Shown here piece after piece: positions 1-58,261 of a stretch of 64,000 bases of DNA. Source of the DNA: Anaerolineales bacterium (GTDB lineage Bacteria > Chloroflexota > Anaerolineae > Anaerolineales > Villigracilaceae); the NCBI GenBank assembly GCA_030680795.1, contig JAUXUL010000036.1:16766-80765 (forward strand), given 5' to 3'. Made by a program: the position numbers and the translations under genes. The notes below the pieces were generated by a model. The model was not told the DNA's origin. It did not search any database and saw only the letters and a list, made by a program, of their open reading frames with translations. Every line of letters starts with the position of its first letter. Position 1 is the first letter of the stretch.

Positions 1-61
1 GCTTGCTTCAACGGAGGAACGCCGTCTTGCATTAACATTGTTCATAATGAGAATTGCTGAC

Positions 62-103
62 TTGACAGGGGGATGTTTCTATGTGAGAATTCAGAAACTG
101 AAT
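62..103 (+). promoter_or_regulatory. Candidate promoter plus dyad operator, regulator unit 1
   Basis: TTGACA 62-67, 17-nt spacer, TG-extended GAGAAT 85-90. Perfect dyad ATTCAG(89-94)-AAA-CTGAAT(98-103) overlaps the -10. Same architecture recurs at 1662, 3675 and 5584. Confidence 0.6.
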
Positions 104-112
104 GCTCAACCT

Positions 113-580
113 ATGACAGATATCAAACCAAACGAATACGCACTTCTCAATGAAATTGCCCAAGACTCAATGGTAACCCAGGCAAATTTATCAGACCGAC
201 TGGGTATTGCTGTTGGCAGCGTCAACTGGTATATCAAACGTCTCATTACTCGCGGCTGGGTCAAGGTCTCACACCTCGATCGTACGCGCCTGAAATATGA
301 CCTGACAGCGGAAGGCATGGCTGTTCTTTCACAGCGTGCGCTGCTTTATGCCCGCGACTCGCTCAAAGTGTATGGCCAGTATAGAGTAAAAGCAAAGACC
401 CTTGTAAAAGATTTGAAAGAGCAGGGTATTCGGTCCGTATATATTGACGGTGATGATGAAGCCATGGATATCATGCGCCTGACCTGTATTGAAAACGAGA
501 TCCTGCTAAGCGAGGCCCCACAAGATGTTGCGCTGAAGGCCGTTGGACAGGAATTTCAGGTGATCGTTTCCTCTTCCTGA
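113..580 (+). CDS. Small winged-helix (MarR-like) transcriptional regulator with short Rossmann-like C-terminal module, paralog 1
   Basis: ORF 38-580. Start placed at ATG 113 (MTDIKPNEY), where the paralogs become colinear. wHTH segment QANLSDRLGIAVGSVNWYIKRLITRGWVKV; C-terminal VYIDGDDEAMDIMRLTCIENEI. Confidence 0.75.
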   Translation: MTDIKPNEYALLNEIAQDSMVTQANLSDRLGIAVGSVNWYIKRLITRGWVKVSHLDRTRLKYDLTAEGMAVLSQRALLYARDSLKVYGQYRVKAKTLVKDLKEQGIRSVYIDGDDEAMDIMRLTCIENEILLSEAPQDVALKAVGQEFQVIVSSS

Positions 581-611
581 TCTGTAAATTTTACAAGGAC
601 TAAAGAGTATT

Positions 612-872
612 ATGACTGCAAGCAATAGTGCAATTTTAAAGGACGAATGGGATCTTATTATCCGCCCGCAACGGAATTGGTGGGATCTGCATTTGGATGA
701 CTTGTGGCGCTACCGCGACCTGATTCAGTTGTTGGTCTGGCGCGATTTTGTGGCTTATTACAAGCAGACCATTCTAGGACCGTTGTGGTATATCATCCAG
801 CCGGTACTGACGACCGTTGTCTTTACTGTGATTTTTGGGAACATTGCCAAACTTTCCACCGACGGCCTGCCT
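612..872 (+). pseudogene. 5' remnant (about 87 codons) of an ABC-2 (Wzm-type) permease gene
   Basis: MTASNSAILKDEWDLIIRPQRNWWDLHLDDLWRYRDLIQLLVWRDFVAYYKQTILGPLWYIIQPV... resembles the N-terminus of the intact Wzm at 25863. Colinearity with the second remnant (2399-) stops after STDGLP. The rest of ORF 612-1013 is unrelated read-through. Confidence 0.75.
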
Positions 873-1085
873 GTGCGTACACGCAGACAGGTTGTCTCTT
901 TCGACATTGAGTATAAATGTAGGAAGGGCGGATGCTGGAAAAACAGGGTAGGGCAACTGCAAGGTGATAAAACTTGTAGCCGGGACAATTCGTTTTGGGT
1001 TTTGAATGTATAGTAGAATCACGCTTGTAGACCGGCAGACCCTAATCCAGATGTGTATTGAAAATGTCAGACGCAGGAGGTTCCA

Positions 1086-1337
1086 ATGATTCATGAATAT
1101 ATCGAAACTGCTTTACGCCACGCGCATTATGAGATCATAAAAGACGAGCAACCCTATTATGGTGAAGTGCCAGAGTTACAGGGGGTTTGGGCGACAGGAA
1201 AATCCCTGGAAGAATGCCGTCAGAACCTGACCGAAGTCGTGGATGGTTGGGTGTTAGTAAGACTGGCGCGCGGATTGCCAATTCCTCCTATCGGTAAGAT
1301 GCAAATCAGACTTCCACAGAAGATGGCTGTTGCCTAA
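1086..1337 (+). CDS. hicB: HicB-family antitoxin
   Basis: 83 aa. YYGEVPELQGVWATGKSLEECRQNLTEVVDGWV matches the HicB/UPF0150 fold pattern. Overlaps the downstream HicA-like ORF; GGAGG precedes the ATG. Confidence 0.7.
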   Translation: MIHEYIETALRHAHYEIIKDEQPYYGEVPELQGVWATGKSLEECRQNLTEVVDGWVLVRLARGLPIPPIGKMQIRLPQKMAVA

Positions 1338-1551
1338 ACTTTCTCCTGTCAGTTGGCGGGAATTCGTCAAACGCCTGCGTCAATTGGGCTTTGAGGGACC
1401 CTTTGAAGGTGGTCAGCATCCCTACATGGTGCATGGAGACCTCGTTGTGACGATTCCAAACCCACACCGCAGTGAAATAAGTGTGGATTTACTTCAGCTA
1501 ATACTGCGCCAGGCAGGAATAAGCCGTAAAGAGTGGCTTGGCGAGTCATAA
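1330..1551 (+). CDS. hicA: HicA-family toxin (YcfA-like)
   Basis: 73 aa, TTG start. SWREFVKRLRQLGFEGPFEGGQHPYMVHGDLVVTIPNPHRSEISVDLLQLILRQAGISRKEW is typical HicA. 8-nt overlap with hicB. Confidence 0.7.
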   Translation: MPKLSPVSWREFVKRLRQLGFEGPFEGGQHPYMVHGDLVVTIPNPHRSEISVDLLQLILRQAGISRKEWLGES

Positions 1552-1661
1552 CCGTCTTCACGCGAAGCGTTCATCCTTCCTAATTCATCCTTTCCTCCCC
1601 GTCCTCGGTCTCCGGTCCTCGGTCTTTTTCCCCCTTTGGGCTAACATTATAGAATTTCCAC

Positions 1662-1703
1662 TTGACAGGATGCTGTTTCCATGCGAGAATTCAGAAACTG
1701 AAT
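1662..1703 (+). promoter_or_regulatory. Candidate promoter plus dyad operator, regulator unit 2
   Basis: TTGACA 1662-1667, N17, GAGAAT 1685-1690. ATTCAG 1689-1694 / CTGAAT 1698-1703. Confidence 0.6.
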
Positions 1704-1713
1704 GCTCAAACCG

Positions 1714-2181
1714 ATGACAGATGTTAAACAGCACGAATATGATCTTTTGAACGAGATTGCCCGGGACTCACTCGGCACCCAGGCCAATCTATCCGACCGC
1801 CTGGGGATCGCCGTCGGCAGCGTGAATTGGTACATCAAGCGCCTGATTAACCGCGGCTGGGTCAAGGTCTCGCACCTCGATCGTACCCGCCTGAAATATG
1901 ACCTGACCTCGGAAGGCATGGCTGTTCTTTCACAGCGCGCCCTGCTTTATGCCCGCGACTCGCTCAAAGTGTATGGCCAGTATAGAGTAAAAGCGCAGAC
2001 TCTGGTAAAAGATCTGAAAGAGCAGGGTATTCGGTCCGTTTATATTGACGGAAATGACGAAGCCATGGATATCCTACGCCTGACCTGTATTGAAAACGAG
2101 ATCCTGCTAAGCGATGCCCCACAAGGTGTTGCGCTGAAGGCCGTTGGACAGGAATTTCAAGTGATCGTTTCCTCTTCCTGA
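1714..2181 (+). CDS. wHTH regulator paralog 2 (mosaic of paralog-3-like 5' half and paralog-1-like 3' half)
   Basis: ORF 1702-2181, conserved start ATG 1714. Same wHTH GIAVGSVNWYIKRLINRGWVKV and the same C-terminal module as paralog 1. Confidence 0.75.
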   Translation: MTDVKQHEYDLLNEIARDSLGTQANLSDRLGIAVGSVNWYIKRLINRGWVKVSHLDRTRLKYDLTSEGMAVLSQRALLYARDSLKVYGQYRVKAQTLVKDLKEQGIRSVYIDGNDEAMDILRLTCIENEILLSDAPQGVALKAVGQEFQVIVSSS

Positions 2182-2216
2182 TATGAAATTATGACTATAC
2201 TGCAAAAACATAAAAC

Positions 2217-2348
2217 TTTAACGCAAGGACGCTAGGACGCAAAAAAATAAAAGTTTTGGCGTAAAATGTTGCAACATTTTGCCTCAAGAACGCGCAAAAG
2301 TGAAGTATCTTTTTGAAAATCTTGGCGACTTTGCGCCTTTGCGTTAAA
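2217..2348. repeat. MITE-like hairpin element inserted between regulator 2 and wzm remnant 2
   Basis: Segment about 2184-2376 is absent from the equivalent spacer of unit 1. Imperfect terminal inverted repeats TTTAACGCAAGG (2217-2228) / CCTTTGCGTTAAA (2336-2348). Central 18-bp palindrome AAAATGTTGCAACATTTT. Confidence 0.5.
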
Positions 2349-2398
2349 AATTTGACTTTTTTCAGTGGTCTCAATTATTACAAGGACTAAAGAGTATT

Positions 2399-2725
2399 AT
2401 GACTGCAAGCAATAGCGCAATTTTAAAAGATGAATGGGACCTTATCATCCGCCCGCAGCGTAATTGGTGGGATTTGCATTTGGCTGACTTATGGGCGTTA
2501 CCGTGATCTGATCCAGCTATTGGTCTGGCGCGATTTTGTAGCTTATTACAAACAGACCATTCTGGGGCCGCTCTGGTATATCATCCAACCGGTGCTGACC
2601 ACAGTTGTCTTTACCGTTATTTTTGGGAACATTGCCAAACTTTCCACTGATGGACTGCCTCCATTCTTGTTTTACATGGCGGGAACCACGGTCTGGAGTT
2701 ATTTCAGCGCCTGCCTGGTGAGCAC
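2399..2725 (+). pseudogene. Second 5' remnant of the same Wzm-type permease gene, frameshifted and truncated
   Basis: ATG 2399 reads MTASNSAILKDEWDLIIRPQRNWWDLHLADLWALP then stop. A 1-nt insertion relative to remnant 1 shifts into ORF 2430-2759 (RYRDLIQLLVWRDFVAYYKQTILGPLWY...PPFLFYMAGTTVWSYFSACL). Permease similarity ends near 2725. Confidence 0.75.
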
Positions 2726-2864
2726 CTCCGTCTCCCGTTCTCCGTCCACTACTCCCTGATTACTGTTGCTTCGCTTGCTTCGGTATGGGGGGTGAAGTAT
2801 ACTGGGATGGTAAGGATTGGATAAAAGACAGTGGTGATTGGAATCGCCCGGAGGATCTGAAATA

Positions 2865-3119
2865 TTGACACACACAGTGAAAATCGAGTTGCCTGAGAGT
2901 TTGCTTGACCGCGCCCGTGTTGAGGCCTGGGATGAAGCTCGTGAATTGGTCACGTTCCTGCTTGAAAGGTACGTGCAAGAGTTGGAAAAGGCGCAGCGCT
3001 GGCAGGCTTACGAGGCCTATTATGAGGCGCGCACGCCGCAAGACGAAGCAGAAGAGCGTGAACTGATGGCCGATTTTGCCTTCGCCGATGCAGAATCTAA
3101 CGATGTATTTCCGATATGA
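2865..3119 (+). CDS. Putative antitoxin of the MazF-type toxin (family not recognised)
   Basis: ORF 2838-3119. TTG 2865 lies 9 nt after GGAGGA (2850-2855). Acidic C-terminus; ATGA overlap with the downstream toxin gene. Confidence 0.5.
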   Translation: MTHTVKIELPESLLDRARVEAWDEARELVTFLLERYVQELEKAQRWQAYEAYYEARTPQDEAEERELMADFAFADAESNDVFPI

Positions 3120-3460
3120 ACCAGGTCGTTCAGCGTGGAGACATCTTTTGGGCTAACCTGGATCCGACGATTGGGGTTGAGATCAAGAAGGCCAGGCCTG
3201 TCGTAGTAGTCTCCAATAACGTGATAAACCAGCGCAGCCAACTGGTCATCGTCGTGCCGTTGACGACAAACATTGAACGCCTTTCTCCCAGCCATGTCTT
3301 GATCCCTCGTGGCGAAGGTGGGTTGAGTCAGGATTCCAAAGTTCTCACTGAACAAATCCGGGCAATGGACAAACAACGGTTGACCGGCAAGGCTGGCAGC
3401 CTGTCGGAGCGTTTTCTACGATTGATTGAACAGGCGCTCCACAATTCTCTCGACATGTGA
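3116..3460 (+). CDS. mazF: MazF/PemK-family endoribonuclease toxin
   Basis: 114 aa. RGDIFWANLDPTIGVEIKKARPVVVVSNN...LVIVVPLTTN is the classic PemK/MazF signature. Confidence 0.85.
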   Translation: MNQVVQRGDIFWANLDPTIGVEIKKARPVVVVSNNVINQRSQLVIVVPLTTNIERLSPSHVLIPRGEGGLSQDSKVLTEQIRAMDKQRLTGKAGSLSERFLRLIEQALHNSLDM

Positions 3461-3508
3461 ATTCATTTCGAGCGCATCACCCTCGCGCCTCGCATCGCCC
3501 GCAAGACT

Positions 3509-3647
3509 ATGCTCCAGCCGCCGTCCCTTGCGAAGCATCCTGTGGACGGCGGCGTTTGCAGGGTAAATCTGGCAGATTGAGCCTGTCGAAATCTTGCCCG
3601 AGGCTTGTACTGCCGAAGGTGTCGAAGTGACGGCGCAAGGAGCAACT
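3509..3647. repeat. Structured repeat, family D, long copy
   Basis: Shares ATGCTCCAGCCGCCGTCC, GGCGTTTGCAGGGTAAATCT, CGAGGCTTGTACTG, AGCCTGTCGAA and GTGACGGCGCAAGGAGCAACT with 5453-5546. The ends are complementary (TGCTCC..GCCGTC / GACGGC..GGAGCA). Confidence 0.6.
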
Positions 3648-3674
3648 TGCCGACCCTGGGCTGAATTTTCCCAC

Positions 3675-3716
3675 TTGACAAGGGGGTATTTCCATGTGAG
3701 AATTCAGAAACTGAAT
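3675..3716 (+). promoter_or_regulatory. Candidate promoter plus dyad operator, regulator unit 3
   Basis: TTGACA 3675-3680, N17, GAGAAT 3698-3703. ATTCAG 3702-3707 / CTGAAT 3711-3716. Confidence 0.6.
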
Positions 3717-3726
3717 GCTCAAGCCG

Positions 3727-3990
3727 ATGACAGATGTTAAACAGCACGAATATGATCTTTTGAACGAGATAGCCCGGGACTCGCTCGGCACCCAGGCCCA
3801 TCTATCCGACCGGCTGGGGATCGCCGTCGGCAGCGTGAATTGGTATATCAAACGCCTGATTAATCGCGGCTGGGTCAAGGTCTCGCACCTCGATCGTACC
3901 CGCCTGAAATACGATCTGACCTCGGAAGATTTGCGGGTTATTACCCAACGCATGATGTCCTGCGCTCGGGATTCGTTGAAGGTGTATTGA
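3727..3990 (+). CDS. C-terminally truncated regulator paralog 3 (wHTH only, 87 aa); possibly a pseudogene
   Basis: Colinear with paralog 2 to ...LKYDLTSE, then a divergent 20 aa ending ARDSLKVY. Its stop TGA abuts the wecB-like ATG (TGAATG). Confidence 0.6.
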   Translation: MTDVKQHEYDLLNEIARDSLGTQAHLSDRLGIAVGSVNWYIKRLINRGWVKVSHLDRTRLKYDLTSEDLRVITQRMMSCARDSLKVY

Positions 3991-5061
3991 ATGGGAATTA
4001 AGACCATCGCTTCCATTGTCGGCGCGCGGCCGCAGTTCATAAAAGCCGCGCCTGTTTCGCGCGCGCTGGCTTCTGATTTCAAGGAAGTTTTTATCCATAC
4101 CGGCCAGCATTATGACCATGGGATGTCTGAGGTTTTCTTTACTGAAATGGAAATGCGCCCGCCCGATTTCAATTTGGGAATTGGCGGCGGTTCGCATGGG
4201 GAGCAAACCGGGAAGATGCTGGTTGAATTGGAGAAAATCTTCGACAATGTGAAGCCCGATTGCGTGCTTGTTTATGGCGATACCAATTCCACGCTGGCGG
4301 GCGCGCTTGCGGCGGCCAAGGCGGGGATTCCGCTTGCGCACGTGGAAGCAGGCTTGAGGTCCTATAACAGAGCGATGCCCGAGGAAGTGAATCGTGTGCT
4401 GACCGATCATGTCTCCAGCATGTTGTTTTGTCCCACACATGCGGCGGTCGAAAACCTTGCAAAAGAGGGAATTGTGAACGGCGTTCATCGTGTGGGGGAT
4501 GTGATGTGCGATGCGCTTTTACATAATCTCGCCAATGCGCGTGCGAGATCGAAAATTTTGAGGCGGCTTGATCTGAAGGCGGGTGAGTACTCGCTCGCCA
4601 CGGTTCATCGCGCCGCCAATACAGACGATGCGGAACGGATGCGTTCGATTCTTAGCGGGTTGGGGAGGCTGTCCACCCGGGTTGTTTTTCCTGTGCATCC
4701 GCGCACGCGCAAAGTGATCCAGGAATGGGGCATTTCAGCGGGTTCAAATGTGCTGATGGTTGAACCGGTTGGTTACTTTGATATGTTGATCTTGCAGGAA
4801 AATGCCGATTGTATTTTGACCGATTCAGGCGGCGTGCAAAAGGAAGCCTACCTTGCAGGCGTGCGCTGCATCACGCTGCGCGAAGAGACCGAATGGGTGG
4901 AAACAGTATCTGGTGGCTGGAATAAACTGGTAGGCGCGAACACGAACATGATCGTGGATACCTATAACACATGGCATCCGCAAGGGGAACGCGCTCCCTT
5001 GTATGGGGACGGCCATTCTGCGCCTCAAATCTGTAAGTTAATTTCCTCGACCCTTGGTTGA
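3991..5061 (+). CDS. wecB: UDP-N-acetylglucosamine 2-epimerase family (WecB/WbpI-type, non-hydrolysing)
   Basis: 356 aa. IVGARPQFIKAAPV, HTGQHYD, GDTNSTLAGALAA and HVEAGLRSYNRAMPEEVNR motifs. Confidence 0.85.
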   Translation: MGIKTIASIVGARPQFIKAAPVSRALASDFKEVFIHTGQHYDHGMSEVFFTEMEMRPPDFNLGIGGGSHGEQTGKMLVELEKIFDNVKPDCVLVYGDTNSTLAGALAAAKAGIPLAHVEAGLRSYNRAMPEEVNRVLTDHVSSMLFCPTHAAVENLAKEGIVNGVHRVGDVMCDALLHNLANARARSKILRRLDLKAGEYSLATVHRAANTDDAERMRSILSGLGRLSTRVVFPVHPRTRKVIQEWGISAGSNVLMVEPVGYFDMLILQENADCILTDSGGVQKEAYLAGVRCITLREETEWVETVSGGWNKLVGANTNMIVDTYNTWHPQGERAPLYGDGHSAPQICKLISSTLG

Positions 5062-5114
5062 TTATGGCTTTTGCAAAGTTGCTTGACAAAAGCAAAAGCC
5101 GTACTCTGAAACAT

Positions 5115-5182
5115 GTCACCCTGAGCGGAGCGAAGGGTCTCTGAGATGAAAACAGAGATTCTTCGCTTCGCTACTAAGGAAC
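5115..5182. repeat. Palindromic element family B (right end degenerate)
   Basis: GTCACCCTGAGCGGAGCGAAGGGTCTCTGA... is nearly identical to the start of the copy at 29756. Confidence 0.6.
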
Positions 5183-5195
5183 AAGAATTTGTGGC

Positions 5196-5211
5196 GCGAC
5201 ATTTATGTCGC
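5196..5211. repeat. 16-bp palindrome GCGACATTTATGTCGC (family E)
   Basis: Identical 16-mer recurs at 54230-54245. Confidence 0.6.
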
Positions 5212-5452
5212 TTGACCGTGCAGAGCAACATATTGCATATTAACAATTAAACCGAGCAATCCATAAAACCTATTTTGAACCACCAAAACACGGAGAAAAC
5301 CAATTTAAAAACTCCATGACTCGGTATCTCCGTGGTAAAGGCTTTATCTTTCCTTGAGGATGATTTGCTCGATTAATTTGGAAAGCTTCAAAATGTCGCG
5401 CTACGGATACCGCCCAAGTTCCTTTGGCTTTGAACAACGTCTTTTTTTGCTT

Positions 5453-5546
5453 ATGCTCCAGCCGCCGTCCCCAGCGGCGTTTGCAGGGTAAATCTTGCGC
5501 CGAGGCTTGTACTGAGCCTGTCGAAGTGACGGCGCAAGGAGCAACT
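5453..5546. repeat. Structured repeat, family D, short copy
   Basis: See 3509-3647. Both copies lie about 30-40 nt upstream of a regulator promoter and are followed by ACCCTGGGCTGA. Confidence 0.6.
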
Positions 5547-5583
5547 TGTTAATTTCCTCAACCCTGGGCTGAGATTTCATCAC

Positions 5584-5625
5584 TTGACAGGGGGATGGTT
5601 CTATGTGAGAATTCAGAAACTGAAT
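5584..5625 (+). promoter_or_regulatory. Candidate promoter plus dyad operator, regulator unit 4
   Basis: TTGACA 5584-5589, N17, GAGAAT 5607-5612. ATTCAG 5611-5616 / CTGAAT 5620-5625. Confidence 0.6.
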
Positions 5626-5634
5626 GCTCAACCT

Positions 5635-6114
5635 ATGACCGAAGTCAAACAGCACGAATACGCCCTTCTCAATGAAATTGCCCAGAACTCAATGGTAACC
5701 CAGGCGAATCTATCTGACCGCCTGGGCATTGCGGTTGGCAGCGTCAATTGGTACATTAAACGATTGATCCAGCGCGGCTGGGTCAAGGTCTCTCATCTTG
5801 ACCGTACGCGCTTGAAGTATGATCTCACGCCTGATGGGATGGCAGTATTCACGCAAAGGGCTTTGCTATATGCGCGTGATTCTTTGAAAGTGTATGGAAA
5901 TCTTCGGCAGAAAGCAAAGGCACTGGTCACGGAATTACAGGAACAAGACCTTCAGCAGGTCTATCTCAATGGCGATGATGAGGCCATGGATATACTGCGT
6001 CTCACTTGTATTGAAGCGGGGATTCAAATAAGTGATATTCCAGAAGAGTGTATCCTTGAAGCCGTTGGGCAGGGGTACCAGGTGAAACGCTTGAAAGGAA
6101 AAAACCATGCCTAA
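5635..6114 (+). CDS. wHTH regulator paralog 4
   Basis: ORF 5584-6114, conserved start ATG 5635 (MTEVKQHEY). wHTH GIAVGSVNWYIKRLIQRGWVKV. Divergent C-terminal half VYLNGDDEAMDILRLTCIEAGI. 8-nt overlap with the next gene. Confidence 0.75.
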   Translation: MTEVKQHEYALLNEIAQNSMVTQANLSDRLGIAVGSVNWYIKRLIQRGWVKVSHLDRTRLKYDLTPDGMAVFTQRALLYARDSLKVYGNLRQKAKALVTELQEQDLQQVYLNGDDEAMDILRLTCIEAGIQISDIPEECILEAVGQGYQVKRLKGKNHA

Positions 6115-7054
6115 AAATTTTGCAGTCATCGGCGTTGGCGGTTATATTGCTCCGCGCCATTTACGCGCCATCCGTGATACGGGCAATCAACTCGTCGCCG
6201 CGGTAGACCCGAAGGATTCCGTCGGTCTGCTGGATCAATATTCTTTTGACGTGAAATTCTTTACCGAGATCGAACGCTTTGACCGTCACCTCGAAAAACT
6301 GCGCCGTGGACCCAAAGAGAACCGTGTGCATTATGTGACGGTCTGCTCGCCCAATTATTTACACGATGCGCATTGCCGCCTCGCATTACGCGTAGGCGCG
6401 GATGTGATCTGCGAAAAGCCATTGGTGATCAACCCCTGGAATTTTGACGCGCTCGAAGAATTGGAAGCCGAGACAAAACACCGCATCCATACCATCTTGC
6501 AGTTGCGCGTCCACCCCGAGTTGATCAAACTCCGCGAGTCTTTGCAAAATTCAAGCGGCATGCACGACGTCGAGTTGACCTACATCACCAGCCGCGGACC
6601 CTGGTATCAAGTCTCATGGAAGGGACATGAGGATAAATCAGGCGGTGTGGCTACGAATATTGGCGTACATTTCTTTGATCTTTTATTATGGTTGTTTGGT
6701 TCTGTAAATGGAATCAAGGTATATCATTCCGATGAAAGTTGCATGTCTGGCTTTATTGAGTTGGAGCATGCCCGCGTGCACTGGTTCCTCTCGGTTGACA
6801 AAAATGACCTGCCATTTTCTGCAAAGGCTGGCGGCAAAACGACCTATCGTTCAATCACAGTAGATGGCAAGGAAATTGAATTTTCAGAAGGCTTTACTGA
6901 TTTGCATACCCGTGTCTACGAAGAGACACTGGCAGGGCGTGGATTTGGTATCAAGGATGCGCGTCCATCCATTCAATTAACACATGCCATTCGCACCGCT
7001 GAAATTTCGCCGAAGGATGACATGGCTCACCCGCTGTTGAAGAACGCCAGGTGA
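6107..7054 (+). CDS. wbpB: WbpB/WlbA-type UDP-2-acetamido-2-deoxy-sugar 3-dehydrogenase (Gfo/Idh/MocA)
   Basis: 315 aa. Recalled colinearity with P. aeruginosa WbpB: NFAVIGVGGYIAPRHLRAIRDTGN, CSPNYLH, DVICEKPLV, YITSRGPWYQVSWKG, ATNIGVHFFD, TYRSITVDGKEIEFSEGFTDLHT. Confidence 0.85.
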   Translation: MPKNFAVIGVGGYIAPRHLRAIRDTGNQLVAAVDPKDSVGLLDQYSFDVKFFTEIERFDRHLEKLRRGPKENRVHYVTVCSPNYLHDAHCRLALRVGADVICEKPLVINPWNFDALEELEAETKHRIHTILQLRVHPELIKLRESLQNSSGMHDVELTYITSRGPWYQVSWKGHEDKSGGVATNIGVHFFDLLLWLFGSVNGIKVYHSDESCMSGFIELEHARVHWFLSVDKNDLPFSAKAGGKTTYRSITVDGKEIEFSEGFTDLHTRVYEETLAGRGFGIKDARPSIQLTHAIRTAEISPKDDMAHPLLKNAR

Positions 7055-7081
7055 CAGTCACTTTAAAAGTGACTGTCACCT
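7049..7081. repeat. 33-nt near-perfect palindrome (16-bp arms) overlapping the wbpB stop codon
   Basis: AGGTGACAGTCACTTT-A-AAAGTGACTGTCACCT. No U-tract follows. Confidence 0.7.
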
Positions 7082-7095
7082 GATGATGGAAATCT

Positions 7096-7674: not shown

Positions 7675-8768
7675 TGATTCCATTGGTTGACCTTACAGCG
7701 CAGTATCATTCCATCAAAAAAGAAATTGACGCGGCTGTCCTGTCCACCTTGGAATCGGGTCATTTTATTCTTGGACCACAGGTCACAAAATTTGAGGAAA
7801 GTGTCGCTTCGTACCTAGGCATGGACTTTGCGGTTGGACTGGCTTCGGGGACGGATGCGCTGGTGATCGCATTGCGGGCGTTGAATGTTGGCGCGGACGA
7901 TGAAGTCATCATGCCTGCCTATACGTTTTTTGCGACGGCAGGCACGGTCATGTCTGTCGGCGCGAAACCCCTCTTTGTGGATGTTGACCCGCAGACGTAT
8001 CAAATTGACGTGAGCAAAATTAGGTCTGCAATTACGCCAAAGACGAAAGCGATCATTCCCGTGCATTTGTACGGGCATCCCGCCGAGATGAATCCGATCC
8101 TTGAGATTGCGCGTGAGCATGGTTTGAAAATCATCGAAGATAACGCGCAGGGGTTCGGCGCGGAATATCTTGGCAGGAAAACTGGTTCACTCGGCGATAT
8201 TGGATGCTTGAGTTTTTTTCCCACAAAAAATCTCGGAGCGTTTGGCGATGCGGGCATGGTTGTGACAAATGACCCCGCGCTGGCTGAACGAATGCGAATG
8301 CTGCGGACGCACGGCTGGAAGAAAAAATATTATTCTGAAGAGGTCGGCTACAACAGCCGCATTGATGCTTTGCAAGCCGCCATCCTGCAAGCCAAACTGC
8401 CATACCTAGATTCGTGGAATGAGAAACGCCGCGAACTGGCTCAGCGCTACAGCGAGAAACTTGGTCCAAATCTTGTCACCCCGATCGAACGAGAATGGGG
8501 CAGGCATGTCTATCACCTGTATATTGTCCGCTCTGCAAAACGCGAGGAATTACAGGCATTTTTGAAACAGAAGGGGATTGCTTCTGAGGTATATTATCCC
8601 ATGCCACCGCATCTTTCTGTGCCATGCAGAAAATTTGGCTACAAGGAAGGTGACTTCCCCCATGCTGAGTTGGCATCACATGAGACTTTTGCGCTTCCGC
8701 TTTACCCTGAGTTGACTTTGTCCCAGCAGGATGAGGTGATCGCGGCGGTGCATGAGTTTGTGGGTTGA
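7671..8768 (+). CDS. wbpE: DegT/DnrJ/EryC1-family PLP aminotransferase (WbpE-type)
   Basis: 365 aa. [52 protein letters not shown] overlap with wbpD. Confidence 0.8.
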
Positions 8769-23143: not shown

Positions 23144-23190
23144 TATTATTATGTGCAAACCCCTTTCTCTTTACCCTGCCCCAAATGGGT

Positions 23191-23209
23191 TATAATTCAG
23201 TGACTGAAT
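23191..23209 (+). promoter_or_regulatory. TATAAT -10 with overlapping dyad operator, regulator unit 5
   Basis: TATAAT 23191-23196. ATTCAG 23195-23200, TGA, CTGAAT 23204-23209. Confidence 0.55.
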
Positions 23210-23231
23210 TTTGGATTACGAAGTACTGTAT

Positions 23232-23699
23232 ATGGAATCAACAAACGACGAACTCCGCGAACTTTCCCTGCTTGAGCAGATCGAAAGCGACCCAAATGTG
23301 AATCAATCCGCGCTGGCAGTGCAGCTTGGCGTTGCAGTTGGCACGGTCAATTGGCATTTAAAGCGCCTGATTGCAAAAGGCGCTGTCAAAGTCTCGCGCG
23401 CTGAGCGCAAGAAACTGCGTTATATCATCACGCCCGAAGGCATTGCCCTGCGCGCCCGCCTCGCACTGGATTATGTGGAACGTTCATTTTTAGTTTATCG
23501 CCGCACACGTCAGCGCGTGAAAGATCATGTTTCAATAATTCGCCATGCCGGCTTCGATCGGGTGCGCATCGTTGGTTCTGGTGATGTGGCGGATATTTGC
23601 AAACTTACCTGCCTCGAACAAGGCATTTCAGTTGTGAACGATAAAACTGTACCAGCCTTAATTTTGGATGGATATAAGATCAGATTGGATGGTTTGTAA
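23232..23699 (+). CDS. wHTH regulator paralog 5 (divergent)
   Basis: ORF 23211-23699, ATG 23232 (MESTNDEL). QSALAVQLGVAVGTVNWHLKRLIAKGAVKV; C-terminal RVRIVGSGDVADICKLTCLEQGISVV. Confidence 0.7.
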   Translation: MESTNDELRELSLLEQIESDPNVNQSALAVQLGVAVGTVNWHLKRLIAKGAVKVSRAERKKLRYIITPEGIALRARLALDYVERSFLVYRRTRQRVKDHVSIIRHAGFDRVRIVGSGDVADICKLTCLEQGISVVNDKTVPALILDGYKIRLDGL

Positions 23700-24709
23700 T
23701 GACGGATCGTCATGTGCTCATCACTGGCGGCGCAGGATATATCGGTTCCATCCTGACCTCGGAACTGCTGCGCGCCAATTACAGAGTCAGCGTCCTGGAC
23801 AGTCTCCTGTTCGGCGGCGAAAGTATTGTCCCATTTCTTCATCATCCTAACTTCCACTTTGTCAGAGCCGATGTGACCGAGAATCGCGCAGTACGTGACT
23901 CGGTCAAGCGCGATTGGCAGAAACCTGATTCGATAGTTCACCTTGCGGCGATTGTGGGATTTCCCGCCTGCCAGTCGGTAGGTAAACAGGTATCGTGGAA
24001 ATATAATGTCGAGGCCACGAAAATGGTTTTCGAGCAGGCGGCAGATTTGGGCGTGGAGCGATTCGTGTTCGCATCCACATACAGCAACTACGGCTTATCC
24101 GAAGATGGCAAGCCTGTCACGGAAGAGTCCCCATTAAATCCGCAATCGTTATACGCCGAGACAAAGATCGCAAGCGAAGAGTTTTTGCTTTCACAAAAAG
24201 ATTCAGCCTGCGCGCCGTTGCTGTTCCGCTTTGCAACTTTATATGGACTTTCCCCGCGCACAAGATTTGATTTGATCGTCAATCAATTTGTGCTGGATGC
24301 ATTTACAAAGCGTTCGCTCATCATTTACCAGCGCGGATATTCGCGCTCGTTCGTCCACATCCGTGATGTGGTGCGCGGTGTGATCATGGGGCTGGAAGCA
24401 GATCAATCAAAAGTTCGTGGACAGGTTTTCAATTTGGGAACCGAGAATGGCAACTATTCGAAGGATGATATTGTGCAACTGGTTTTGAAACGTATGCCTG
24501 AAACTGTTGTTGAATACAAGGATATGTCCTTTGGCGGCGACATGCGCGATATTACCGTGTCCTTTGAAAAGATCAAGCGTGTGCTTGGATTTGACACGCT
24601 ATTCGATGTGGATGATGGCGTGCGTGAAGTTTTGTTTGCATTGAAGTCTGGTTTGATAAAAAACCCGACAGATGACAGATATAGGAATGCGCAGTTTATA
24701 GTTCAATAA
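23699..24709 (+). CDS. NAD-dependent epimerase/dehydratase (extended SDR)
   Basis: 336 aa. VLITGGAGYIGS, YAETKIASE (YxxxK). Confidence 0.7.
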   Translation: MTDRHVLITGGAGYIGSILTSELLRANYRVSVLDSLLFGGESIVPFLHHPNFHFVRADVTENRAVRDSVKRDWQKPDSIVHLAAIVGFPACQSVGKQVSWKYNVEATKMVFEQAADLGVERFVFASTYSNYGLSEDGKPVTEESPLNPQSLYAETKIASEEFLLSQKDSACAPLLFRFATLYGLSPRTRFDLIVNQFVLDAFTKRSLIIYQRGYSRSFVHIRDVVRGVIMGLEADQSKVRGQVFNLGTENGNYSKDDIVQLVLKRMPETVVEYKDMSFGGDMRDITVSFEKIKRVLGFDTLFDVDDGVREVLFALKSGLIKNPTDDRYRNAQFIVQ

Positions 24710-50638: not shown

Positions 50639-50666
50639 TGGGGATGGGTAGCCGAAAAAATCCAAA

Positions 50667-50694
50667 ATTCACCGCCTGAATTTTGGAGTATAAT
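50667..50694 (+). promoter_or_regulatory. Operator-like dyad plus TATAAT upstream of the PAPS-synthase gene
   Basis: ATTCAC 50667-50672, CGC, CTGAAT 50676-50681, inside the 10-bp inverted repeat CCAAAATTCA/TGAATTTTGG. TATAAT 50689-50694. Confidence 0.45.
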
Positions 50695-50803
50695 TTGCGC
50701 TTGTGTTTGACAAATAATAAAACTTCGGAAGTCTCTCTACATGTTTTTTAATTGAAAGACTCCGAAAAGGCTTCCGAAGTTTACACTTTTCATGGAGTAA
50801 AAA

Positions 50804-52531
50804 ATGGCAAAAGCAAAACTCATCCCGCCTTATGGCGGCAAACTGGTCAACCTGATGGTCGAAGGCAAGGAGCGTGAAGAACTTCTCGCCCGCGCCGGGC
50901 AACTTCCTTCCATCAAGATCACCATGCGTAATATGTGCGACCTCGAATTGATCGCCACGGGCGGATTTTCTCCACTGGCCACATTCATGGGCAAAGCCGA
51001 TTATGACCGAGTGCTCAAGGAAATGCGCCTTGCGGATGGAACGCTCTTCCCGCTTCCCATCACCCTGACAGCTGATCCTAAAGAACTAGCGACCATTGGC
51101 GAAGAACTGGCATTGCGAAGCGCAAACTTCGATCTGATCGCGGTGATGACTCTTGATGAGGTCTATCACTGGGATGCAGAGACCGAAGCGACATTGGCTT
51201 ATGGTTCAACTGACTCCAAGCACCCGATGGTCTCTGAGATGGAGCGGTGGGACAAGGTCTGCATCTCTGGACCAATGAAAGTTGTTAACCTCCCCAAGTA
51301 TTATGACTTTGTGAATTTGAGACACACGCCCGTTCAGATACGTGACATGCTCGAAAAGATGGGACATGATAATGTGGTCGCATTTCAGACCCGCAATCCT
51401 TTGCACCGCATTCATGAAGAACTCACCAAACGCGCCGCGGCTGAGGTCAAAGGCTCGTTGATCGTTCACCCCGTCGTCGGTATGACCAAGCCCGGTGATG
51501 TGGATCATTACACCCGCGTCCGAACATACAAGGCGTTGGTGGATAATTACTACGACAAGAAAGACACCATGCTCAGCCTGCTTCCGCTGGCAATGCGTAT
51601 GGCGGGTCCAAAGGAAGCGTTACTGCATGCCATCATTCGTCGTAACCACGGTGCGAATCATTTTGTTGTCGGCCGCGATCACGCAGGGCCGGGAAACGAT
51701 TCTTCGGGCAAACCATTCTACGGTCCGTATGAGGCGCAGGAAGTCATGAAGAAATACGAAGCCGAGCTAGGCGTCAAGATGATCCCGTTCGAAATGCTCG
51801 TCTATCTGCCTGATGAAGATCGTTATGTCGAAGAGAAGGAAGTGCCCAGGGGCATGAAGACAGCCAATATTTCCGGCACACAAGTCCGCGATGAATATCT
51901 GATCAAGGGTAAGTTGTTACCTGAATGGTTCACACGACCCGAGACCGCTGAGATCTTGCGCGAGATGTATCCGCCGCGCCACAAGCAGGGCTTTTGTATT
52001 TGGTTTACCGGCTTAAGCGGTTCAGGCAAGAGCGCCACATCAGAGGTGCTCACCACGTTGCTCCTCGAACGCGGACGTGAGATAGCCATTCTCGATGGTG
52101 ATGTGGTTCGCACGCATCTTTCCAAGGGACTTGGTTTCAGCAAGGAAGATCGCGACACCAATATCATTCGCATCGGATTCGTAGCCGGCGAAATTGTCCA
52201 CGCAAGCGGTGCTGTGATTTGTGCAGCAATTAGTCCATACCGCGCTACCCGCGCAGAAGCCCGCAAGATGGTGGGTGAGAACTTCATCGAAGTGTACATG
52301 GATACCCCCGTTGAAGTCTGCGAACAACGCGATGTAAAAGGTTTATATGCCAAAGCGCGCCAGGCTATGGCGGACGGTAAGCCGATGGGCTTCACCGGCG
52401 TGGACGATCCCTACGAACCGCCGATCGAACCTTCGATCACGCTCCAGGGCTTCGGCGCAACACCGGAAGACAATGCCCGCATTATCATCAAGTACCTTGA
52501 AGACCAGGGCTATATTCTGCCTGCAAAATAG
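50804..52531 (+). CDS. Bifunctional sulfate adenylyltransferase / adenylylsulfate kinase (PAPS synthase)
   Basis: 575 aa. QTRNPLHRIHEEL and VGRDHAGPG (ATP sulfurylase). C-terminal FTGLSGSGKS P-loop (APS kinase). Confidence 0.9.
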   Translation: MAKAKLIPPYGGKLVNLMVEGKEREELLARAGQLPSIKITMRNMCDLELIATGGFSPLATFMGKADYDRVLKEMRLADGTLFPLPITLTADPKELATIGEELALRSANFDLIAVMTLDEVYHWDAETEATLAYGSTDSKHPMVSEMERWDKVCISGPMKVVNLPKYYDFVNLRHTPVQIRDMLEKMGHDNVVAFQTRNPLHRIHEELTKRAAAEVKGSLIVHPVVGMTKPGDVDHYTRVRTYKALVDNYYDKKDTMLSLLPLAMRMAGPKEALLHAIIRRNHGANHFVVGRDHAGPGNDSSGKPFYGPYEAQEVMKKYEAELGVKMIPFEMLVYLPDEDRYVEEKEVPRGMKTANISGTQVRDEYLIKGKLLPEWFTRPETAEILREMYPPRHKQGFCIWFTGLSGSGKSATSEVLTTLLLERGREIAILDGDVVRTHLSKGLGFSKEDRDTNIIRIGFVAGEIVHASGAVICAAISPYRATRAEARKMVGENFIEVYMDTPVEVCEQRDVKGLYAKARQAMADGKPMGFTGVDDPYEPPIEPSITLQGFGATPEDNARIIIKYLEDQGYILPAK

Positions 52532-57406: not shown

Positions 57407-58261
57407 ATGAGATTGATCCAACAACTTCGTCGTATTCTCCGCCCTGCAGGCAAAACCGCTCAAGCCATTTTGCGATGGAAGCGGTTTTCTTTTAATGATG
57501 CGCCGCCCATCTTTGGCAACTCCAAACCGAAGAGCGGATCGCATTTGCTGTTGCAAATTCTCAATGGCTTTACACAGATCATGCCGTATCGTTACGTAGA
57601 TGCTGATCCGATCCGGACGATAAAGAAAGACGGCGGACGACGGACGACGGACGATGTTCTGATGGATTTGCGTGCTGTGCCAGAAGGGGTAATTGGCTGG
57701 GGATATTTGGAAGCGACCAAAGAGAACGCCTCTTTCTTAACCGAGGCTGGGCGCGTCAACTATTTCATTTATCGTGACCCGAGGGACATGCTCGTCTCAC
57801 AAGTGTTCTTCGCGACCGATATGCACGAAGAGCATGGGATGCACGCCTACTATAATTCCCTGTCTGATTTCGGCGCGAGATTGAATGTTGCCATCTCAGG
57901 CATTGACCAGGACGGCATGAAAATGGTCAGTGTGAAGCAGAGGTATGAAGGCGTCTTCCAGTGGCTGGAACAAAAGAATGTGATGTGCCTGCGCTTTGAG
58001 GATTTGATCAATAACCGTGATGTGACTCTCAACGCCATGCTCGATGAAGTGGAAAAGACAGGCTACAAGATCCCAACTCCGCGCGGGAAAGCATTGTCCA
58101 TTTTGGTGGATGCGATCCAGCCGAAGAAGAGTCACACCTTCCGCTCGGGAAAGACAGGTAGCTGGCGTCAGCATTTCACCGAGGAACACAAGCAGTTATT
58201 CAAGGATATGGCGGGAAATTTGCTGGTGAAGCTGGGGTATGAGAAGGATAATAGTTGGTAA
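57407..58261 (+). CDS. Sulfotransferase (PAPS-dependent)
   Basis: 5'-PSB-like GNSKPKSGSHLL. 3'-PB-like IYRDPRDMLVS. Confidence 0.65.
   Translation: MRLIQQLRRILRPAGKTAQAILRWKRFSFNDAPPIFGNSKPKSGSHLLLQILNGFTQIMPYRYVDADPIRTIKKDGGRRTTDDVLMDLRAVPEGVIGWGYLEATKENASFLTEAGRVNYFIYRDPRDMLVSQVFFATDMHEEHGMHAYYNSLSDFGARLNVAISGIDQDGMKMVSVKQRYEGVFQWLEQKNVMCLRFEDLINNRDVTLNAMLDEVEKTGYKIPTPRGKALSILVDAIQPKKSHTFRSGKTGSWRQHFTEEHKQLFKDMAGNLLVKLGYEKDNSW

Follow-up and report, generated by a model that had tools for sequence, protein, structure and literature searches.

Conserved promoter dyads as predicted operators of two MarR-like regulator families in an Anaerolineales cell-surface glycan island

A 64,000-nt stretch of contig JAUXUL010000036.1 from an Anaerolineales bacterium (GCA_030680795.1), referred to here at its full length as the window, carries five paralogous regulator genes (P1 to P5), and the question it raises is what the short inverted repeat on the promoter of each of them is for. 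The original prediction described this repeat as ATTCAG-N3-CTGAAT, pointed to a near-copy in front of a gene fusing ATP sulfurylase and adenosine 5'-phosphosulfate (APS) kinase (sat/cysC), and proposed autoregulation, cross-regulation among the paralogs and a possible link to sulfation. From comparison with orthologous loci, we consider it probable that the dyads are operators of two paralogous winged-helix (MarR-like) regulators within a cell-surface glycan island of the Anaerolineales. The sites appear to fall into two operator classes that differ in their flanks and go with separate regulator families: class A with RegA (P1 to P4) and class B with RegB (P5), the two families sharing 37-42% protein identity.

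The dyads in the window and in other species

Exact matches to ATTCAGAAACTGAAT were found at 89-103, 1689-1703, 3702-3716 and 5611-5625, as predicted, together with the P5 site ATTCAGTGACTGAAT at 23195-23209 and the sixth site, ATTCACCGCCTGAAT, at 50667-50681 with 1 mismatch. At up to 1 mismatch, ATTCAG-N3-CTGAAT occurs 6 times in the window against 0.15 expected, and none of 100 shuffles reached 6. A promoter scan agreed with the original description at all four class-A sites, where the dyad overlaps a GAGAAT -10 that follows TTGACA after a 17-nt spacer, and also placed a TG one base 5' of each -10. The P5 dyad overlaps a perfect TATAAT (23191-23196), and the sixth site lies just 5' of the TATAAT (50689-50694) before sat/cysC; the string said to be common to these two sites, CTGAATTTTGGA, is indeed present in both. 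The dyads extend further than first described. The class-A dyad is GAGAATTCA-GAAAC-TGAATGCTC, with 9-bp arms and one mismatch (85-107, 1685-1707, 3698-3720 and 5607-5629), and this 23-mer occurs only at these four places in the window, against 0.09 expected. Site 6 (50661-50687) is an 11-bp perfect inverted repeat, TCCAAAATTCA-CCGCC-TGAATTTTGGA, whose right arm is identical to that of the P5 site (23205-23215). The six operators and their promoters are:

62-107, + strand: class-A promoter/operator cassette 1, with -35 TTGACA at 62-67, TG at 82-83 and -10 GAGAAT at 85-90; dyad parts GAGAATTCA at 85-93, GAAAC at 94-98 and TGAATGCTC at 99-107
1662-1707, + strand: class-A promoter/operator cassette 2, with -35 at 1662-1667, -10 at 1685-1690 and dyad at 1685-1707
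3675-3720, + strand: class-A promoter/operator cassette 3, with -35 at 3675-3680, -10 at 3698-3703 and dyad at 3698-3720
5584-5629, + strand: class-A promoter/operator cassette 4, with -35 at 5584-5589, -10 at 5607-5612 and dyad at 5607-5629
23189-23215, + strand: class-B operator on the regB promoter, with left arm GTTATAATTCA at 23189-23199 (containing the -10 TATAAT, 23191-23196), spacer GTGAC at 23200-23204 and right arm TGAATTTTGGA at 23205-23215
50661-50694, + strand: class-B operator on the sat/cysC promoter, with TCCAAAATTCA at 50661-50671, CCGCC, TGAATTTTGGA at 50677-50687, G, and TATAAT at 50689-50694

A scan of the window for weaker sites with the class-A 23-mer returned nothing beyond the four known copies, and the class-B core at up to 3 mismatches gave 14 matches against 8.2 expected, of which only the known six were judged real. 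The four class-A copies sit within duplicated 58-nt blocks, so their identity is not independent evidence; since they are paralogous duplicates, the real test is cross-species. All four blocks keep a 25-nt stretch, GAGAATTCAGAAACTGAATGCTCAA, unchanged, even though the -35/-10 spacer differs and the coding sequences are 70-85% identical.

For class A, we compared 80 loci from 78 other genome assemblies, encoding proteins 66-88% identical to P4. The pattern TTGACA-N17-[G/C]AGAATTCA-N5-TGAA[T/C]GCTC, a consensus that can also be written TTGACA-N17-(TGn)GAGAATTCA-N5-TGAAYGCTC, was found no more than 90 nt 5' of the start codon in 78 of the 79 loci with upstream sequence; L044, the exception, has it 277 nt upstream. 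The TG, -10 and dyad are at least 90% conserved, and the columns 5' of the -35 and most of the -35/-10 spacer are unconserved. The predicted unit of 6-bp perfect arms with a 3-nt spacer did not hold up: ATTCAG-N3-CTGAAT matches just 20 of 78 orthologous sites, ATTCA-N5-TGAAT matches 57, and TTCA-N5-TGAA matches all 78. The innermost G and C therefore lie outside the conserved unit, and the core, as read from these sites, is (A)ATTCA-N5-TGAAT within a 23-27 bp dyad. A Villigracilis-like subgroup has TGAAC in place of TGAAT; by eye, no parallel change was seen in the recognition helix of P0115, the sole subgroup protein compared. Database open reading frame (ORF) calls that are over-long translate through the class-A dyad as 'RIQKLNA' or 'CENSETE'. 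Leaders of regA are short (~17-25 nt) and lack a Shine-Dalgarno sequence. As a separate observation, many Villigracilis-like loci (L015, L020-L023, L036, L043, L047, L053, L059, L063 and L067) carry a conserved GGGGAATCGTAGGGATTCTC block ~40-70 nt 5' of the class-A -35.

The class-A cassette is not confined to regulator genes. Full cassettes (-35, 17-nt spacer, TG, -10 and dyad) also occur 5' of other genes in at least 11 species, 2-8 kb from regA, and these encode wzm ABC-2 permeases, CTP_transf_3 cytidylyltransferases and Gfo/Idh/MocA oxidoreductases. The gene 3' of regA in other loci is Gfo/Idh/MocA in 47 of 78, a hexapeptide acetyltransferase in 15, wzm in 8 and wecB in 3; regA followed by Gfo/Idh/MocA, the commonest arrangement, is also that of P4 in the window.

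For class B, TATAATTCA-N5-TGAATTTTG was present in 80/80 metagenome regB loci, with invariant arms and 18 different spacers. Invariant arms around a free spacer are the pattern expected of a dimer that would contact the arms only. A fuller form, GTTATAATTCA-N4-C-TGAATTTTG(G/A)A, stands 8-25 nt 5' of the start codon in the same 80 of 80 loci, and the same NAD-dependent epimerase gene lies 3' of regB in 73 of 75. A further 39 class-B sites were found in class-A loci of 39 species, ~8 kb upstream of regA. All 39 overlap a TATAAT, and next come AGGAG and a gene starting MPTALITGITGQDGSYL; this gene is gmd, encoding GDP-mannose 4,6-dehydratase (Pfam E = 1e-134). Class-B sites thus occur with a Shine-Dalgarno sequence (gmd) and at differing distances from the start codon.

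Enrichment over shuffled sequence had been set beforehand as a test of the motif. An exact scan for ATTCA-N5-TGAAT across the 160 loci and the window (1.97 Mb) gave 198 matches compared with 0-4 in shuffles, and all but 3 of the 198 were at class-A or class-B promoters. Viral contigs gave 27 class-B and 14 class-A pattern matches, mostly chance matches in coding regions of AT-rich phages (GC 0.20-0.38), and none of the contigs with matches encodes a relative of RegA or RegB. One contig of GC 0.48 (L198; IMGVR_UViG_3300002220_000492) has two class-B-like sites, at 1570-1592 and 7755-7777, which read TATAATTCA-N5-TGAATTTTG with T for C before TGAAT and each overlap a TATAAT ahead of ORFs. We take this contig to be phage-like from its ORF layout and an N-terminus that looks like that of a terminase small subunit, no family search having been run; no RegB homologue was found within the 14 kb examined. 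It could be an Anaerolineales phage using a host operator, or the matches could be due to chance.

The sixth site belongs with class B. It is free of the constraint of a -10 hexamer and shows the right arm of the regB sites in both of its arms. A full-length class-B position weight matrix misses it, having been trained on sites whose left arm contains TATAAT, and a half-site comparison was used instead. The gene that it precedes is:

50804-52531, + strand: gene fusing ATP sulfurylase and APS kinase (sat/cysC), which heads its operon

The rest of this operon includes a PMT-like glycosyltransferase, a short-chain dehydrogenase/reductase, a CMP-sugar synthetase/HAD fusion, NeuB, a sulfotransferase (57407-58261) and Capsule_synth. 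Eleven loci, taken for six orthologues, provided 8 distinct sequences upstream of sat/cysC, and (T/C)(C/T)(C/T)AAAATTCA-N4-C-TGAATTTTGGAG-TATAAT was found in 8 of 8; the protein itself is 88-96% conserved in the clade. Spacers of the dyad differ (CCGCC, TTGAC, CCCGC, CCGGC, TCGTC and CTCGC), and exactly one base separates the dyad from TATAAT in each. The gene upstream varies; that of L161-L165 is encoded on the opposite strand, and the dyad is retained there. No recognizable sigma-70-like -35 was detected by the promoter scan at sat/cysC. The dyad, centered ~27 nt 5' of the inferred start, would cover the -35 region, from about -40 to -14. The proposed link to sulfation was therefore borne out in one respect and revised in another: these results suggest that the link is conserved and that it runs through P5 and not through P1 to P4, because site 6, a perfect 11-bp dyad, belongs by its flanks to the RegB class; it is no degenerate P1-P4 site but has a P5-class half-site in both arms.

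Downstream of this promoter, the ~100-nt sat/cysC leader contains a 12-bp inverted repeat, AAACTTCGGAAG / CTTCCGAAGTTT (50719-50782). Orthologous leaders (L161-L171) have hairpins in the same place with other sequences, e.g., GACCTCCGAGGTC...GACCTCGGAGGTC and GGACTTCCAAAGTC...GCTTCGGAAGTC; the leader hairpin had no Rfam match, and the leader may be an element conserved in structure.

The regulators and their probable mode of action

The five regulator genes are:

113-580, + strand: regA1 (P1), 155 aa; winged helix-turn-helix, long helix and C-terminal alpha/beta domain; Pfam HTH_24 and MarR_2
1714-2181, + strand: regA2 (P2), 155 aa, 91% identical to P1; alternative in-frame ATG at 1702
3727-3990, + strand: regA3 (P3), truncated, 87 aa; winged helix kept
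5635-6114, + strand: regA4 (P4), 159 aa; stop overlaps the start of a Gfo/Idh/MocA gene (6107-7054)
23232-23699, + strand: regB (P5), 155 aa; stop overlaps the start of an NAD-dependent epimerase gene (23699-24709)

All five belong by profile to the MarR-superfamily winged helices (PF01047, PF12802 and PF13412). HTH_24 scored 40-44 bits in each (Pfam cut-off 21.9), MarR_2 was at or above 27 in P1, P3 and P4, and MarR (PF01047) scored 25.6 in P5 against a cut-off of 24.6. The best NCBIfam model for every paralog was TIGR04176, at 38.8-61.9 bits (45 for P1) and under the 88-bit cut-off. An AlphaFold2 model of P5 (predicted local distance difference test score, pLDDT, 92.8) has a winged helix-turn-helix, a single helix at 68-105 and a small C-terminal alpha/beta domain; the truncation of P3 removes most of the long helix and the entire C-terminal domain. 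Foldseek matched the P5 model to DNA-bound MarR-family repressors through the winged helix only, aligning 70-105 columns at template modeling (TM) scores of 0.40-0.47, and so did not find a canonical MarR fold. The C-terminal domain (~50 aa) matched no Pfam family, and when modeled alone (AlphaFold2, pLDDT 87) it had no match in the PDB (best E 0.14), with weak resemblances to phosphoribosyltransferase and Rossmann fragments only. Among the relatives listed, both families are confined to Anaerolineales-like Chloroflexota: P4-type relatives number 2,059, the best 120 being 75-90% identical, and P5-type relatives at least 8,000, the best 120 being 86-97% identical. P1 and P2 are 75% identical to P4, as distant from it as are orthologues of other species. 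The recognition helix VGSVNWYIKRLI is identical across P1 to P4, as the original prediction held. Cross-regulation among P1 to P4, whose operators and helices are identical, is accordingly plausible, with the qualification that P3 is truncated and that P1 and P2 head decayed modules; the data do not point to a single regulon common to paralogs 1 to 5.

In the mechanism that we propose, a RegA dimer would bind GAGAATTCA-N5-TGAATGCTC, spanning the -10 and the inferred start of the TTGACA-N17-(TGn)GAGAAT promoter, and RegB would bind (tcc)AAAATTCA-N5-TGAATTTTG(g/a)a. The left arm of the RegB site coincides with TATAAT on the regB promoter and that of gmd, and on sat/cysC the dyad stands one base upstream of TATAAT. 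Half-site centers are 11 bp apart, or about one helical turn. At class-A, regB and gmd promoters, transcription should start 6-8 nt after the -10 and so inside the dyad spacer (for cassette 1, near 96-98). The dyads lie over the -10 and start (at sat/cysC, over the -35 region), so that a bound dimer would exclude RNA polymerase, and repression is the likely mode. Such occlusion would produce negative autoregulation, since each regulator is the first gene of its own operon, and co-repression of the export (wzm/wzt), amino-sugar, GDP-sugar and 3'-phosphoadenosine 5'-phosphosulfate (PAPS)/sulfation operons. regA4 and regB are presumably co-transcribed with the operons that follow them, because they overlap the start of the next gene (6107/6114; 23699). 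Release would come from a signal, perhaps sensed via the family-specific C-terminal alpha/beta domain (~50 aa), which is the obvious candidate sensor. The original claim of autoregulation is supported by comparative genomics: a conserved palindrome overlaps the regulator's own promoter in the window and in ~160 independent orthologous loci, and is found on other glycan operons as well, binding itself being predicted.

Several points weigh against this interpretation. The assignment of regulator to operator draws on co-localization; the recognition helices of RegA and RegB are nearly the same and an AATTCA core is common to both classes, so which protein would read which class, and whether the two cross-talk, is inferred from the flanks only. 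The class-A spacer (RAAAC) and the GCTC past the right arm are more conserved than an arm-only operator needs, and the initial transcribed sequence or the short leader lacking a Shine-Dalgarno sequence may also be under selection there. The predicted fold is not that of a canonical MarR dimer (TM only 0.40-0.47). Finally, RegB could activate, rather than repress, sat/cysC, where no -35 is recognizable.

This last point opens the strongest alternative, that RegB is a dual regulator, repressing its own promoter and gmd, where the dyad is over the -10 and start, and activating sat/cysC. The missing sigma-70-like -35 at sat/cysC would agree with it, as would the spacing from dyad to TATAAT, which is strictly fixed in all sat/cysC orthologues as a contact dependent on the face of the helix predicts; moreover, MarR-type activators of polysaccharide genes exist, e.g., ExpG of S. 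meliloti, whose palindromic sites lie in exp promoters (PMC1403797). However, a dyad centered near -27 covers -40 to -14 and overlaps the contacts of sigma region 4 and the spacer, a center near -27 is not a known activator position, and the same protein in the same orientation would repress by occlusion at the other sites. Dual action is, on balance, unlikely.

Less likely still is that a factor other than the adjacent regulator binds the conserved block, or that the block is intrinsic to the promoter or to the initial transcribed sequence, such as the mark of a special sigma factor, a discriminator or a start-site signal for short leaders without a Shine-Dalgarno sequence. Conservation at class A does reach beyond the symmetric arms (TG, the RAAAC spacer and GCTCA), and the regA leader is short and free of a Shine-Dalgarno sequence. 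However, the block has dyad symmetry; site 6, which stands clear of the -10 and start, is an 11/11 inverted repeat with arms kept and spacer varying; class-B sites also occur where there is a Shine-Dalgarno sequence (gmd) and at varied distances from the start codon; and the promoters of each regulator family invariably carry one motif class. We regard an origin in another factor or an intrinsic element as improbable.

The dyads might instead act as RNA, either as a hairpin in the 5' untranslated region that affects translation or stability or, for site 6, as the intrinsic terminator of the upstream gene. The class-A sequence can fold at -8.2 kcal/mol and site 6 at -11.8 kcal/mol, and a scan for terminator patterns flagged site 6, 22 nt past the stop of the preceding gene. 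However, the conserved -35/-10 would place the start inside the class-A and regB dyads, leaving the left arm untranscribed. Among 30 distinct class-A variants, 4 of 10 pairs were broken in 11-19 without compensation, and neither the proportion of paired cells (80.7% vs. 80.9% in shuffles) nor the covariation score (0.031 vs. 0.028) stood out. An Rfam scan of the whole window gave no relevant match at E <= 1, only two chance matches at 7002-7095. A structured RNA (hairpin or riboswitch) was rejected on the lack of covariation in the 30 variants and of a relevant Rfam match. A terminator at site 6 was rejected as well: only 3 of 11 pairs are G-C in an AU-rich stem, and the tail GUAUAAUUUG has no U-tract on the + strand; because the upstream gene is divergent in L161-L165 and the dyad is kept, that role is ruled out. 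An RNA function is thus very improbable. That the repeats in the window are a functionless by-product of recent tandem duplication, as the duplicated 58-nt blocks beside duplicated coding sequence might suggest, can be dismissed almost completely, since in the window the dyad is invariant and the -35/-10 spacer varies, and the 23 bp are kept in the 78 other assemblies where the flanking non-coding sequence is not.

The glycan island and its decayed modules

Operators for RegA and RegB are predicted in a region rich in surface-polymer genes. Judging from its gene content, the island at 23232-60025 looks like a locus for a polysaccharide that carries sulfate and nonulosonic acids and leaves the cell through an ABC transporter: Wzm, Wzt (with a Wzt_C domain), two NeuB, PseB-like, RmlD-like, a CMP-sugar synthetase/HAD fusion, PAPS synthase, sulfotransferase and two Capsule_synth proteins (KpsS/KpsC-like). 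Downstream of regB and the first epimerase gene come a second epimerase, wzm, wzt, Capsule_synth, a methyltransferase, PseB-like, RmlD-like and NeuB genes; after regA4 and its Gfo/Idh/MocA neighbor come genes for a hexapeptide acetyltransferase, a DegT aminotransferase and Wzx. The setting expected of TIGR04176, an exopolysaccharide locus, is present, with wzm/wzt, wzx, DegT, NeuB, Capsule_synth and sulfotransferase genes nearby.

The first part of the window (1-5100) holds three decayed regA module heads in tandem ahead of the intact regA4, whereas other species have one regA per 20-kb locus. Downstream of P1 are a truncated wzm fragment (612 to ~880) and a HicB/HicA-like pair (1086-1551). 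Downstream of P2 are an insertion resembling a miniature inverted-repeat transposable element (MITE) and a frameshifted wzm fragment (2399 to ~2750), and the regA2 module is followed by one ORF without assignment and a PemK/MazF toxin gene (2838-3460). The stop of regA3 directly abuts the start of wecB (3991-5061). The MITE-like insertion (2199-2366) has 45-nt imperfect inverted repeats (2199-2243 and 2322-2366) that are 73% complementary, and the equivalent junction of regA1 and wzm is without it. regA3 and regA4 also share, 5' of the -35, a ~170-nt block with indels (3508-3660 and 5452-5570) that holds a GC-rich inverted repeat, CCGCCGTCC...GGACGGCGG, and may be a terminator or an element like the repetitive extragenic palindromic (REP) sequences.

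The decayed heads look like remnants of the replacement of glycan cassettes at a conserved head. More speculatively, and we would not bet on it, the regulator gene with its ultra-conserved promoter and operator could be a portable 'cassette head' of Anaerolineales glycan modules that combines a feedback circuit with a recombination anchor. The circuit could have two tiers, with paralogous regulators that share a core half-site, differ in its flanks and, through their orphan C-terminal domains, sense intermediates of the pathway (a nucleotide sugar or PAPS, for example); if so, feedback would tie the synthesis of glycans to their export and sulfation. The same head could also serve as an anchor for homologous recombination in swaps of glycan cassettes, in which case the decayed modules (two regA-wzm and one regA-wecB), between which toxin-antitoxin pairs lie, would be the scars left by these swaps.

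Anaerolineales, including Ca. Villigracilis, are abundant filamentous bacteria of activated sludge and anaerobic granules and are almost entirely uncultured. To our knowledge, nothing is known of how their surface polymers are regulated. Within granular sludge's extracellular polymeric substances, sulfated and nonulosonic-acid glycoconjugates have been detected chemically, and their producers and pathways are described as poorly known (PMC10483923). The present analysis yields two precise, very conserved operator motifs, two candidate regulators and a first predicted regulon, which takes in gmd, wzm/wzt, an operon for amino sugars, and the PAPS synthase gene together with genes for a sulfotransferase and for nonulosonic acids. 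The motifs can be used to find glycan operons in metagenomes, and the prediction can be checked culture-free with purified proteins and synthetic DNA.

Comparison with known systems

The mechanism itself, that of an autoregulated winged-helix repressor, is conventional. In MarR/SlyA autoregulated repressors (E. coli MarR at marO, MepR, HcaR, FabT and BpsR), a winged helix-turn-helix reads a palindrome over its own -35/-10, the regulator gene is first in, or beside, the regulated operon, and BpsR also controls a polysaccharide locus. Proteins of this kind are Foldseek's best matches to the P5 model. However, RegA and RegB have a winged helix, one ~38-residue helix and an extra ~50-aa alpha/beta domain rather than the all-helical dimer of canonical MarR proteins, which are about 140-150 aa long, lack any further domain and build the dimer interface from their N- and C-terminal helices. 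TIGR04176 (MarR family EPS-associated transcriptional regulator; EPS, exopolysaccharide) is the closest curated family and is alike in its polysaccharide-locus setting, although its model has 105 positions without the C-terminal domain and the paralogs reach only 39-62 bits against a cut-off of 88. A literature search found no paper on TIGR04176 operators, on these motifs or on this regulator family.

Among characterized systems, ExpG (WggR) of Sinorhizobium meliloti is a MarR-type regulator encoded in an exopolysaccharide cluster that binds palindromes of several operons including its own (PMC1403797). The likeness lies in a regulator within a glycan cluster and in short conserved palindromes before several operons of that cluster; ExpG, however, is an activator whose sites overlap PHO boxes, whereas the geometry of the Anaerolineales sites points to repression, and the sequences are unrelated. 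Sso10a-type proteins also have a winged helix followed by a long helix (Foldseek TMt 0.72 for Sso10a-2, 4hw0, and 0.71 for AspA, 5k5q), but they are small archaeal chromatin or centromere proteins without a C-terminal domain, and the resemblance is one of fold only. JUMPStart/ops is a short conserved non-coding element that heads many enterobacterial surface-polysaccharide operons; the ops element has no palindrome, sits within the leader transcript and acts by recruiting RfaH to elongating RNA polymerase. The Anaerolineales element resembles it as a conserved non-coding mark at the head of varied surface-polysaccharide operons across a clade and differs from it in being a dyad on the promoter that travels with a winged-helix regulator gene.

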